64,000 bases of DNA, taken from the NCBI GenBank assembly GCA_017440465.1, contig JAFSHF010000023.1, positions 33,515 to 97,514 of the forward strand, given 5' to 3'. Of the stretch, positions 9,558 to 56,096 are shown piece after piece. How positions within the stretch are numbered: position 1 is the stretch's first letter; the number at the start of each line of letters is the position of its first letter. The position numbers were made by a program, and so were the translations under genes. Under the pieces are notes generated by a model. The model had not been told where the DNA came from and made no database searches. It saw only the letters and a program-made list of their open reading frames with translations. This DNA is from Clostridia bacterium. GTDB lineage: Bacteria; Bacillota; Clostridia; Oscillospirales; QAKW01.

Positions 9558-10483
9558 AAAAAGTATTTATTGACGGCAGTGCCGGCACCACCGGCCTGCG
9601 CATCCGCGAGCGGCTTGCCGCAAGGGGCGATATTGAACTGTTGATCCTTTCCGAAGAACTGCGTAAGGACCCTGCCGCCCGCAAAGAGATGCTCAATCAA
9701 GCGGATATCGCCTTTTTATGCTTGCCCGATGATGCGGCAAGGGAGGCGGTGTCGATGATCGAAAATCCCAATACCGTGGTGTTGGATACCTCCACCGCCC
9801 ATCGCACCGACCCCAATTGGTGCTATGGCTTCCCCGAACTTTCGGAAGAACGCTATCAAGCGGTGAAAGAAGCCAAGCGCATCGCGGTCCCCGGTTGCCA
9901 TGCCAGCGGCTTTATCGCATTGGTCGCGCCCTTGGTGGAAGCGGGTGCTTTGCCGAAAGATGCATTGCTGACCTGCCATTCCATCACCGGCTACAGCGGC
10001 GGCGGAAAAAAGATGATCGCTCAATACGAGGCGGAAGAACAAGACCCGCTCTATCAGGCACCCCGCCAATATGCGCTGGGTCAAGCCCATAAGCACCTGC
10101 CCGAAATGAAGGCGATCGCAGGGATCGAGAACGATCCCATCTTTTGCCCCATTGTTTCGGATTTCTATAGCGGAATGGCAGTCACCGTCCCGCTCTTTGC
10201 AAGCCAACTGAACGAAGGCTTTGATATCGAGGCGATCAAAGAGATCTATCGTAAAAAATATCAAGGTCCGATGGTATTCTGGAGCGAAAGCCCCGCCGCC
10301 GATGGCTTTTATTCCGCCGTTGCCTATGGCGATAGCGATAAAATGGAGATCACCGTTCAAGGCAACGCCAAGCGCATTTTGCTTTTGGCCCGCTATAATA
10401 ATTTGGGCAAGGGTGCCTCCGGTGCGGCATTGGAATGTATGAATATCGTATTGGGTGATGCACCCGATAAGAATTTGGAATAA
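9554..10483 (+). CDS. argC: N-acetyl-gamma-glutamyl-phosphate reductase (short, type-2 form)
   Basis: 309 aa. ATGA overlap with argH. Active-site PGCHASG. Confidence 0.9.
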   Translation: MKKVFIDGSAGTTGLRIRERLAARGDIELLILSEELRKDPAARKEMLNQADIAFLCLPDDAAREAVSMIENPNTVVLDTSTAHRTDPNWCYGFPELSEERYQAVKEAKRIAVPGCHASGFIALVAPLVEAGALPKDALLTCHSITGYSGGGKKMIAQYEAEEQDPLYQAPRQYALGQAHKHLPEMKAIAGIENDPIFCPIVSDFYSGMAVTVPLFASQLNEGFDIEAIKEIYRKKYQGPMVFWSESPAADGFYSAVAYGDSDKMEITVQGNAKRILLLARYNNLGKGASGAALECMNIVLGDAPDKNLE

Positions 10484-10494
10484 GGAGTTCATTT

Positions 10495-11706
10495 ATGAAA
10501 ATCATCCAAGGCGGTGTCACCGCCGCAAAAGGATTTCAAGCAAGCGGTATCCACGCAGGCATCCGCAAGAATAAAAGTAAAAAGGATCTGGCACTCATTG
10601 TCAGCGAAGTTCCCGCGCAGGCGGCGGCTGTCTATACCACCAATTTGGTCAAGGGCGCGCCTCTTTCAGTCACAAAGGAGAATATTTCCAACGGCATCGC
10701 GAAGGCGGTCATCTGCAATAGCGGCAACGCCAATACCTGCAATGCCAACGGCATTGAGGTGGCAAAAGAAATGTGCTCGATGGTCGGTAAGGCACTGAAT
10801 ATCGATCCCGCCGATGTGGTGGTGGCATCTACCGGTGTCATCGGTCAGCCGCTGGATTTAGAGCCTATTGCCAACGGCATGGATGCGCTGGTCGCTTCTT
10901 TGAGTGCCGACGGTTATCCTGCCGCCGAAGCGATTATGACCACCGATACTAAGCCGAAGGAAGTGGCGGTGGAATTTGAGATCGACGGCAAGGTCTGCCA
11001 TCTGGGCGGTATCGCCAAGGGGAGCGGAATGATCCATCCCAATATGGCGACCATGCTGGTCTTTTTGACCACCGACTGCGCCATCGACTCGAAAATGCTC
11101 CAAAAAGCCCTGAGCAACGATGTCCAAAATACCTTTAATATGACCAGTGTCGACGGCGATACTTCTACCAACGATATGGTGGTGGTCCTTGCCAATGGGT
11201 TGGCGGGCAACACCCCCATCATCGCCGAAGGTGCCGCTTTTGATACCTTTATGAAGGCGCTCAATACCGTCACTGTCGCCCTCTGCCAAATGATCGCTGG
11301 GGATGGGGAAGGTGCCACCAAGATGCTGGAATGTACCGTCTGCGGCGCCGCCGATCTGCAGACCGCAAAAACCGCCGCCAAGAGTGTTATCTGCTCTTCG
11401 CTGACCAAAGCGGCAATGTTCGGCGCCGATGCCAACTGGGGCAGAGTCCTTTGCGCGATCGGTTATAGCGGTGCAAAAGTAGATGTTTCCAAGGTGGAAT
11501 TGCATTTTGCCTCCAAAGCGGGCAAGATCCTGGTCTGCGAAAACGGGACAGGGGTGGAATTCTCCGAAGACCTTGCCAAAAAGATCCTCTTGGAGGATGA
11601 AATTGAAATTTTGATCGACCTTCATAGCGGCGATGCCAAAGCCACCGCCTGGGGTTGCGATCTGACCTATGATTACGTCAAAATCAACGGCGATTATCGT
11701 ACTTAA
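10495..11706 (+). CDS. argJ: Bifunctional ornithine acetyltransferase / N-acetylglutamate synthase
   Basis: 403 aa with the autoprocessing motif ATMLVFLTTD and a TAAGGAG RBS. Confidence 0.95.
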   Translation: MKIIQGGVTAAKGFQASGIHAGIRKNKSKKDLALIVSEVPAQAAAVYTTNLVKGAPLSVTKENISNGIAKAVICNSGNANTCNANGIEVAKEMCSMVGKALNIDPADVVVASTGVIGQPLDLEPIANGMDALVASLSADGYPAAEAIMTTDTKPKEVAVEFEIDGKVCHLGGIAKGSGMIHPNMATMLVFLTTDCAIDSKMLQKALSNDVQNTFNMTSVDGDTSTNDMVVVLANGLAGNTPIIAEGAAFDTFMKALNTVTVALCQMIAGDGEGATKMLECTVCGAADLQTAKTAAKSVICSSLTKAAMFGADANWGRVLCAIGYSGAKVDVSKVELHFASKAGKILVCENGTGVEFSEDLAKKILLEDEIEILIDLHSGDAKATAWGCDLTYDYVKINGDYRT

Positions 11707-32041: not shown

Positions 32042-32160
32042 AATAATATGAAAAAATTTTTTCATAAGGGGGATACTCTGCGCTGTTTGCTTTTTCGACC
32101 ACTCCGCGGCTTGGCGGCTGCTTCAACGAACCCAGACGGGTTCGATCCCCGATCGACGCC

Positions 32161-32191: not shown

Positions 32192-32435
32192 CTTCTTTGG
32201 AAAGGGTGCACAAATTCAAACTCTTTTGATTTTTTGACCTATGTGTTCGAACCACTACATATTATTTATAATTCGTCGGCAAAGCCGACACCGAAATTAT
32301 TCATTATTCATCAGCGTAAGCGACTTCATTATTCATTACGAAAATCCGTTTTAATGAATGATGAATATTGAATAATGAAAAATGAATAATACAAAACAAA
32401 AATCCCACCGACAAAAGTCGACAGGATTTTCGTTT

Positions 32436-44927: not shown

Positions 44928-44968
44928 AAAAGCCACTAAATCAAAAAAGATTTAGTGGCTTTGTTTTA
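44928..44968 (+). terminator. Intrinsic terminator
   Basis: 14-bp stem AAAGCCACTAAATC-AAAAAA-GATTTAGTGGCTTT followed by a T-rich tract. Confidence 0.75.
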
Positions 44969-45179
44969 TTGTATTGTTTGCTAATAAATCACAGCGAAGC
45001 TGTGTATGTAATCATCACGAACTGATGAATGTAATTGCAACTTTAGTTGCGTATGTAATCAAACCCGAAGGAGTTTCCGCCCATACACCTAACGGTGATG
45101 CCATGCTGTGCTCCGCACAAATTACATACAATTCGCATTACGCGAATTGATTACATCCTCAAACCCCTCGGGTTTGAAT

Positions 45180-45212
45180 AAAAAAACCTCGTTCTGAGAA
45201 CGAGGTTTTTTT
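45180..45212. terminator. Bidirectional terminator adjacent to tRNA-Gln
   Basis: A7-CCTCGTTC-TGA-GAACGAGG-T7. Confidence 0.8.
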
Positions 45213-45288
45213 GGCTGGGATAGCAGGACTCGAACCTGCGGAATGACGGAGTCAGAATCCGTTGCCTTACCAACTTGGCTATATCCCA
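45212..45288 (-). tRNA. tRNA-Gln (anticodon CUG)
   Basis: Reverse complement TGGGATATAGCCAAGTTGGTAAGGCAACGGATTCTGACTCCGTCATTCCGCAGGTTCGAGTCCTGCTATCCCAGCCA. Anticodon loop TT-CTG-AC and an encoded CCA. Confidence 0.9.
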
Positions 45289-55982: not shown

Positions 55983-56096
55983 AGAACGACTCTTTGCGAC
56001 TGACGGATCATGTGGAGTTCACCACAATGGAGCAAAGGGTAAAAAGCCGACCGTCTGGGCGCACATCTCCTGCAAGGAGTCGTGCGCCCTTTTTGT
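55983..56096 (+). ncRNA. ZTP riboswitch (pfl motif) with terminator expression platform
   Basis: GCGACTGACGG...GTGGAGTTCACCAC..GGAGC sub-domain, a linker, then GCCGACCGTCTGGGCG (compare the consensus CCGCCUGGGC). The 3' element overlaps the terminator GGGCGCAC...GTGCGCCC-TTTTT, directly upstream of purE. Confidence 0.8.

Follow-up and report, generated by a model that had tools for sequence, protein, structure and literature searches.

The four-helix-bundle family PF05635/TIGR02436 includes S23p, the "23S rRNA intervening-sequence protein", and the DGR protein Avd. Members of this family are abundant and structures have been solved, and to our knowledge no function has been established for them outside DGRs. 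Judged by analogy, the closest known kind of element to the one we describe here is the S23p-encoding 23S rRNA intervening sequence. In Coxiella, this sequence carries a promoter-less S23p ORF inside the transcript of a stable RNA, RNase III cleaves its terminal stem of 28 bp, strains differ in the number of tandem heptamers that precede the ORF, and S23p is a homopentameric toroid (PMC4990558). The DGR target, the substrate of a system in which the PF05635 protein is Avd, must contain a hairpin that is unconstrained in stem sequence but depends on its structure and on a G-R-N-A loop (PMC3240598). We searched the literature on PF05635, TIGR02436, tandem hairpins and conserved linkers and found no description of the element reported below.

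The window, meaning the whole 64-kb stretch of DNA that was analysed, from an uncultured lineage of gut Clostridia, holds eight short hairpins at 44990-45177, all at the coordinates at which an earlier sequence-only reading of this DNA had placed them. That reading set them between two terminators, and we find terminator-like hairpins on both sides, at 44929-44962 and 45180-45212. The former is bidirectional, belongs to the yfbR-like gene and is the far boundary of the element; the latter is a perfect 16-bp bidirectional intrinsic terminator directly 3' of tRNA-Gln(CTG) (45212-45288, - strand, promoter at 45330-45302 on the same strand) and has a T-run and ATTC after it on the - strand, a feature shared by all members of the family described below. 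The neighbours upstream are tig, clpP, clpX and the yfbR-like HD gene, and beyond the tRNA-Gln lie NAGPA, an AraC-family gene and sigF/spoIIAB. The element sits after tRNA-Gln, and no rRNA was found in the window. The window sequence is 100% identical in five independent metagenome assemblies, which excludes an assembly artefact.

The segment had been called a structured non-coding element, and its predicted folding is much more stable than that of dinucleotide shuffles: z is -6.1 for the + strand and -4.5 for the - strand, and 0/200 shuffles do as well. Only short mechanical ORFs overlap it, in agreement with the reported absence of a credible ORF, and we found no sigma-70-like promoter inside it. 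The Rfam 15 models matched only the tRNA, no family matched the segment even at E = 10, and the best other scores were far below the gathering threshold. Seven of the eight stems are perfect in the Watson-Crick sense claimed for all of them; the exception, AAACCC-GAAG-GAGTTT, has one C.A mismatch on the + strand, and this is the pair that becomes G.U on the - strand only, as had been observed. The motif ATGTAAT/ATTACAT occurs 9 times in the window against 7.2 expected, and five of the nine fall within 45006-45156. These account for the direct and inverted copies already known, five exact instances of G-TATGTAAT-C or its complement. Two degenerate inverted copies had been overlooked, CCGCCCATAC at 45077-86 and GATGCCATGC at 45097-106, so that the chain comprises 3 + 4 linkers joining 8 hairpins. 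Every linker has the form G-8mer-C, and its G and C close the neighbouring stems.

The same architecture was found in at least nine other lineages, and we are confident that the window segment is a member of a conserved, uncatalogued family of hairpin chains, here without its ORF. Compared loci are labelled with L-numbers. Among the matches listed in a motif scan and blastn, L201, L228 and L059 share the 10-mer while their hairpins are unrelated. Loose scans (three gapped copies of ATGTAAT, or three of GTATNTNATC) listed mostly eukaryotic and giant-virus tandem repeats, the real members being these same three. The L201 chain follows the tRNA-Gln of another organism and the L228 chain ends at a contig end, and in both a PF05635 gene adjoins the chain. 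L059 is a phage fragment in which the chain lies between divergent genes, upstream of a small ORF and of terminase and portal genes; neither a tRNA nor a PF05635 gene adjoins it. A search with the L201/L228-type PF05635 protein returned at least 1,600 close homologues, mostly on short contigs. A look-up of PF05635 genes that was independent of the motif led back to this arrangement, behind tRNA-Gln in L201 and behind tRNA-Cys in three lineages (L453-462, L463/464 and L465-467). The tRNA upstream of full modules is tRNA-Cys in three lineages, tRNA-Gln in one (L201) and tRNA-Arg in one (L468). We found no close relatives of the PF05635 protein in viral contigs, and scans of viral contigs for other motif variants gave no further members.

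In every close-homologue context that we examined, the order on one strand is tRNA-Cys(GCA), terminator, a first hairpin X, direct GTATGTAATC units, inverted GATTACATAC units, last hairpin and PF05635. The terminator of full copies is strong and intrinsic and ends in a T-run plus ATC. The direct (D) arm has 3-4 units of C-stem-loop-stem-G plus TATGTAAT, the inverted (I) arm has 3-9 units with the complementary linker ATTACATA, and the conserved last hairpin is followed by the RBS and ATG of a promoter-less PF05635/TIGR02436 gene. The G-8mer-C junctions are alike in the window, L201, L453, L463, L465, L059 and L283. Between terminator and ORF, no sigma-70-like promoter was found in any of L463, L453, L465 and L201. 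L453 and L201 have a consensus promoter immediately before the tRNA; in L463 and L465 the tRNA is the last of a tRNA cluster, with no promoter within the scanned stretch, and promoter-like sites occur after the ORF in L465 and L201. Having no promoter of its own, the PF05635 ORF would have to rely on read-through from the tRNA unit, much as the ORFs of intervening sequences do in rRNA transcripts.

The strand of the window copy had been left undecided. A call from wobble pairs or folding energy fails, as G.T pairs are too few and the z-scores are equal on both strands, but the constant order of tRNA, chain and PF05635 ORF in full modules places the window element on the minus strand. After the terminator at 45212-45180 this strand reads DDDD-III, which matches the family order. 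It begins with the first hairpin X (45159-45177), TCAAACCC-GAG-GGGTTTGA, whose 5' arm has a local and a distal partner. The D arm then runs through linker D1 (45149-45158, GGATGTAATC), hairpin AATTCGC-ATTAC-GCGAATT (45130-45148), D2 (45120-45129, GTATGTAATT), hairpin TGTGC-TCC-GCACA (45107-45119), D3 (45097-45106, GCATGGCATC, with the variant GTATGGCATC at the same place in L453 and L280), hairpin ACC-TAAC-GGT (45087-45096) and the degenerate D4 (45077-45086, GTATGGGCGG). The centre hairpin (45059-45076) follows; its 3' half on the - strand, GGGTTTGA (45059-45066 on the + strand), is the distal X' and can pair with X. In the I arm, I1 (45051-45060, GATTACATAC) is followed by hairpin GCAAC-TTTA-GTTGC (45037-45050, with a homologous hairpin at the same place in L228), I2 (45027-45036, AATTACATTC), in which an altered first base makes up for the altered last base of D2, hairpin ATCA-CGAAC-TGAT (45014-45026, perfect in the strain variant L280 as ATCAC-GAA-GTGAT) and I3 (45004-45013, again GATTACATAC). 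The hairpin CACAGC/GCTGTG at 44990-45004, formerly listed as the first, is therefore the last hairpin of the family and the homologue of the conserved pre-RBS hairpin ACGCC..GGCGT-GATT of full modules; it fits the last-hairpin consensus CAC(R)(S)C-loop-G(S)(Y)GTG followed by ATT (alignment A1). The window also has the family's second X' copy directly before the first inverted linker, complementary to the 5' arm of X. Since tblastn found no PF05635 homologue anywhere in the 64-kb window, we regard the window copy as an orphan. L283, L280 and L059 are orphan chains too.

Set beside the S23p intervening sequences of Coxiella burnetii and Leptospira, the chain has in common a promoter-less PF05635 ORF within a stable-RNA transcription unit, complementary sequences able to form long-range helices, variation in unit number upstream of the ORF (for the chain, an indel between the window and L280, and 8-9 units in L465) and the existence of ORF-less derivatives. 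The differences are of place and layout. The chain occupies the trailer of a tRNA after an intrinsic terminator, whereas the intervening sequences lie inside helix 25 or 45 of 23S rRNA; both of its complementary arms are upstream of the ORF rather than flanking it; and its arms consist of 8-10-bp linkers split by variable hairpins instead of one 28-bp stem cut by RNase III. We would class the chain as a variant of the S23p intervening sequence that sits in tRNA trailers and whose arms are split by variable hairpins. It extends the idea of an intervening sequence from rRNA to tRNA operons, with gut and rumen Clostridia having a promoter-less PF05635 gene behind tRNA genes together with a covarying hairpin chain.

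The chain resembles the DGR target in its free stems, in the mostly GAA/GNRA loops of its D arm and in its place beside a terminator-like hairpin. Unlike a DGR, it has no reverse transcriptase, template repeat or variable repeat nearby and gave no PADLOC hit, and it consists of many hairpins with a conserved linker where the DGR target is a single hairpin. CsrB/RsmZ-type RNAs are likewise hairpin chains that display many copies of a short motif, and by analogy this multi-copy display points to multivalent binding by an oligomeric protein. In those RNAs the motif is in the loops, whereas in the chain it is between the hairpins, half of its copies occur as the reverse complement, able to base-pair with the others, and nothing in Rfam matches. 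REP/BIME and terminator-hairpin clusters are also intergenic arrays of palindromes in alternating orientation near gene ends (PMC8355165). REP elements have conserved stem sequences and many dispersed copies; in the chain no two stems are alike, conservation is in the linkers, and there is one copy in 64 kb. The chain thus adds a family of structured elements, with conserved linkers and covarying stems, that has no counterpart in Rfam.

Repeat arrays of this design extend beyond the close family. PF05635 homologues at 43% identity keep it with other motifs: L468 has tRNA-Arg, terminator, GTGATATT direct, AATATCAC inverted and ORF, and L469 has the terminator of a protein-coding gene, ATGAAATA direct, TATTTCAT inverted and ORF. 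A four-helix-bundle gene on a Nostoc plasmid has (AATTCGC)x4 upstream and a complementary array downstream, and one in Bernardetia has (TAGTGAT)x16 upstream and inverted copies downstream. Given these four arrays, direct and inverted lineage-specific repeats of 7-8 nt appear to be a trait of the PF05635 gene family, whose genes are regularly preceded or flanked by such arms. PADLOC gave no hit for the PF05635 protein. The arrangement gives a testable hypothesis on PF05635 function, namely that the protein recognises its own repeat scaffold.

We compared the same site in close relatives, graded by identity of the yfbR-like protein. At 99% identity, L280 and L281 have the window element with one extra 21-nt unit, CGCC-GTA-GGCG-G-TATGGAATC. 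At 93%, L003 and L282 have an empty site, with a single bidirectional terminator and then the tRNA. At 90%, L283-285 have the same architecture with all six linkers being TATATCAT/ATGATATA, and their last hairpin is compensated relative to the window (CACAGC/GCTGTG to CACGGC/GCCGTG). A different structured insert occupies the site in L001, L002 and L406 (88-95%), and L004 (86%) has a rearranged chain with CGATATA linkers. We counted one copy of the element in the 64-kb window and saw no target-site duplication when filled sites were compared with the empty sites of relatives. Changes in the arrays are of whole units, one between the window and L280, and L465 has 8-9 near-identical tandem I units. 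Hairpin chains of this sort explain the strong variability of tRNA 3' flanks in these genomes.

As a neutral benchmark for divergence we used identity at four-fold degenerate sites, which is 53% between the window and L283, 89% between the window and L280, and 25% (8/32, saturated) between L463 and L465. The linkers are identical across lineages with saturated four-fold sites, and the stems differ yet remain paired, with 42 of 58 scored spacers forming perfect hairpins. Between the window and L283, the hairpins at first looked hypervariable (52% spacer identity against 87% in the neighbouring intergenic sequence) and we took this for hypermutation. With four-fold sites themselves at only 53%, the stems diverge at approximately the neutral rate while staying paired, and we dropped that idea. 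Between the window and L280, the intergenic region shows 2 substitutions in 229 positions plus the one whole-unit indel, against 9 differences in 79 adjacent four-fold sites (Fisher p = 1e-4), so the orphan copy is still constrained. In the last hairpin, 4/6 pairs are compensatory (alignment A1), and its covariation score of 0.512 compares with 0.166 in shuffles, none of 500 reaching 0.512. Stems contain few G.U (G.T) pairs, 4 of 316 scored. Loops of the G..A type (GAA, GNRA) are found on the tRNA strand for the D arm but on its complement for the I arm, and between L463 and L201 one hairpin differs by inversion of its loop only.

Nested long-range helices between direct and inverted motif copies had been predicted for the window. 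This is partly supported: the 8-mers are indeed complementary and covary, although a competing helix between X and the distal X' had been missed. In the window, TATGTAAT-T pairs with A-ATTACAT, and D2 ending in AATT faces I2 beginning with AATT, a change of C-G to T-A. In L453, TATGGAAT pairs with ATTCCATG or ATTTCATG, and in L283 the motif has switched in the whole element, in all six copies (TATATCAT/ATGATATA). The 5' arm of X is perfectly complementary to the distal X' just before the first inverted linker, and four unrelated X sequences (TCAAACCC, CATTGCG, CAAGCCGCC and AATCCAAAGG) keep this complementarity across members; in L059 the distal X' is the only partner of X. The predicted D:I and X:X'(distal) pairings are therefore both supported by covariation. 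In the window, TCAAACCC can pair with GGGTTTGA locally or distally, and the two long-range arrangements are mutually exclusive, with energies of -65.9 and -67.6 kcal/mol (difference 1.7).

The best overall explanation, which we regard as an evenly balanced proposition, is that the window element is the orphan hairpin chain of a tRNA-linked PF05635 module and acts as RNA. The RNA-level mechanism itself, which we favour but infer, we put forward a shade more cautiously. The chain would be transcribed as a trailer of the tRNA by read-through from the tRNA promoter, and the RNA would form local hairpins plus one of the two competing long-range arrangements. In one of these, nested D:I helices of 8-10 bp would make a ladder of four-way junctions; in the other, the X:X'(distal) helix would close off the D arm and leave the linkers single-stranded. 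Switching between them could display or hide the invariant 8-mer for a cognate PF05635 oligomer, the linker being a candidate recognition or processing site for this oligomer and possibly also for a double-strand-specific RNase. Such processing would parallel that of the 23S intervening sequences, where the terminal stem is cut by RNase III. Binding of PF05635 to the chain is pure supposition on our part. Because the ORF-less window copy is still conserved, we propose a partner in trans: the copy has lost or never had its ORF, and its likely partner is a PF05635 protein from another locus of the genome.

Several observations sit uneasily with an RNA leader. Read-through may be small, given the strong terminator ahead of the chain. 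The near-absence of G.U pairs (4/316) is unusual for RNA under structural selection, a dyad-symmetric loop design is unexpected for an RNA made from one strand, and the folding energies are equally good on both strands. The D:I helices, at 8-10 bp and interrupted by junctions, are not canonical RNase III substrates, and the phage copy L059 stands apart from any adjoining tRNA or PF05635 gene.

The chain is always right after a terminator hairpin, including in the phage and after a protein-coding gene. This is one reason to consider that the structure acts as DNA, as single-stranded hairpins or an extruded branched cruciform recognised by a PF05635 oligomer or by host enzymes, for example in placing or maintaining the module just downstream of terminator hairpins, the way in which DGR target hairpins and group IIC intron target sites work. 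We think such a role less likely than an RNA leader, but it is a serious rival and the alternative with the most in its favour. Four features suit it better than they suit an RNA: the stems are almost purely Watson-Crick (4 G.T in 316), GNA/GNRA loops are on opposite strands in the two arms, the L463/L201 hairpin differs by a flipped loop only, and C-GAA-G/GCGAAGC mini-hairpins, whose stability as DNA is exceptional (PMC13037366), turn up repeatedly, in the window, L201, L228 and L059. The site is also polymorphic in close relatives (empty in L003 and L282, another motif in L283, another element in L001), and the hairpin that DGR targets need is a DNA hairpin, free in its stem and with a GRNA loop on the sense strand, in a system whose Avd is of the PF05635 family (PMC3240598). 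What weighs on the other side is the constant place and direction of the chain, between tRNA and ORF in every full module, as would suit a transcript leader, together with the lack of a consistently nearby reverse transcriptase, transposase or recombinase, of target-site duplications between filled and empty sites, and of more than one copy in 64 kb.

A broader idea, which we consider improbable and offer as speculation, is that a PF05635 protein and the repeat array of its lineage make up the two parts of a selfish or regulatory module that is widespread. A toroidal oligomer would recognise its own 7-8-nt repeats on a branched scaffold and colonise the 3' side of the terminator hairpins of stable-RNA genes, in tRNA trailers here and in rRNA helices elsewhere. 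If this were true, the PF05635 family would for the first time have a defined cognate ligand in the hairpin chain, which may work as a DNA cruciform or hairpin array directing insertion or maintenance and not as an RNA leader.

The sequence-only reading had also likened the motif copies to iterons or operator half-sites, that is, a double-stranded array of 8-10-bp sites in both orientations for a protein regulating the neighbouring gene or replication. The motif is kept in sequence beyond what mere pairing asks for, and both of its orientations occur ahead of a small gene that could encode its own regulator. Nevertheless, we judge this reading very unlikely. Motif centres are 21 to 27 bp apart, with variation within as well as between members, and hence out of helical phase; the spacers are without exception hairpins of unrelated sequence, a feature that binding to a duplex would not account for; no promoter is present to be regulated; and the neighbours (yfbR-like gene, tRNA, NAGPA) include no replication gene.

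A role as back-up terminator or insulator, separating the convergent yfbR-like gene and tRNA-Gln, would suit the chain's place between two terminators of convergent units, and hairpin clusters have been proposed as intrinsic terminators (PMC8355165). We find this hard to credit, since the relatives L003 and L282 need only a single bidirectional terminator, the chain in L201, L453, L463 and L465 precedes a co-oriented ORF that needs transcription through it, the L059 chain is flanked by divergent genes, the hairpins have no U-tracts, and the invariant 8-mer and the D:I and X:X' covariation are left unexplained. Equally implausible is a functionless decaying relic or the footprint of a mobile element (integrase arm sites, MITE, REP/BIME-like or phage packaging site), in our judgement. 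In its favour, no PF05635 ORF adjoins the window copy, relatives differ at the site, which adjoins a tRNA 3' end, a classic integration site, and one copy lies upstream of phage terminase genes. Against it, the element exceeds four-fold sites in conservation in the closest pair (p = 1e-4), its hairpins are still perfect, no integrase among the nearest genes, duplicated tRNA 3' fragment or target-site duplication accompanies it, and the scanned viral contigs gave no more copies.

Some more specific candidates were set aside as well. Six related phage contigs share the terminase and portal genes of L059 with nothing upstream, which disposes of a phage packaging site. For integrase arm sites or a prophage remnant, there is no integrase among the nearest genes and the element is unsplit; we also found no tRNA-Gln fragment in the window element or in the phage L059. 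A CRISPR array is excluded by repeats of 8-10 nt (not >=23), by "spacers" that are palindromes of 11-21 nt, and by the absence of cas genes among the scanned neighbours.

The other two tRNA spacers to which attention had been drawn, those of Ser-GCU and Ser-GGA, do not belong to the family of the hairpin chain; one of them holds an AT-rich repeat cluster. A different tRNA-3'-end-like element is present in one or both of these tRNA-Ser spacers.

The 3' flanks of tRNA genes carry a second kind of insert, ~250 nt long and located on the strand opposite the tRNA, in relatives that have the yfbR-like/tRNA-Gln locus of the window (L001, 5900-6135; L002, 5630-5870; L406, 2264-2435; L004, 4847-4928), and also in the window itself at 32105-32160 and possibly at 150-260. 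Compensatory changes are present in the hairpins of this insert when L001 is compared with L406, and no Rfam match was found for it. The insert and the real tRNA have a bidirectional terminator in common, and the terminal part of the insert, which reads ...GGCTGCTTCGACGAAC-hairpin-GTTCAAGCC..CCCAGCCA, resembles the T-arm and acceptor 3' end of a tRNA. At the very end of the L002 contig (5840-5946), we noted a perfect long palindrome that covers the terminator together with the 3' end of the tRNA; this palindrome is probably a fold-back assembly artefact.

Three relatives without the tRNA-Gln arrangement (L005, L006, and L407) have a conserved leader-like hairpin (ATCAACGTGCAGTTTGC...GCAAACTGCACG followed by a T-run) ~60-140 nt past the stop codon of the yfbR-like HD gene and upstream of the next gene. 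L005 also has tandem units of ~170 bp at 10150-10573, each of which combines a tRNA-like segment (GCGGTTCGAGCCCGC) with a terminator; these units may be stacked attachment-site remnants. In L465, which has a full module of tRNA-Cys, terminator, hairpin chain and PF05635 ORF, a tRNA-Arg(CCT) lies just downstream of that module, with a gene for a tyrosine integrase after it on the other strand (1719-2968); this stretch is a separate integrated element.

Tandem heptamers lie upstream of the distant four-helix-bundle (PF05635) genes on two plasmids, and the reverse complements of these heptamers lie on the downstream side of the genes. The repeats are (AATTCGC)n at 640-690 and 1058-1095 in Nostoc punctiforme pNPUN02 (L470) and (TAGTGAT)n at 535-640 and 1060-1100 in the Bernardetia plasmid (L471). 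These arrays could pair into a long stem enclosing the PF05635 ORF.

Two other repeat arrays do not belong to the hairpin-chain family. In a phage region of the IMG/VR contig L262 (4290-4590 and 1740-1800), GTATGTAAT(C/T/A)CG occurs in many direct and inverted copies, but the copies are not separated by hairpins. This region resembles a common operator-type array and has no relation to the chain. Downstream of tRNA-Ser(GGA) in the window, an AT-rich cluster at 32280-32395 contains direct copies of ATTATTCAT, inverted copies of ATGAATAAT, and one clean hairpin (GTCGGC-AAA-GCCGAC), and its likeness to the chain is only loose.

Elsewhere in the window, a ZMP/ZTP riboswitch (pfl motif) was detected at 55986-56067 on the + strand, scoring above the Rfam gathering score.
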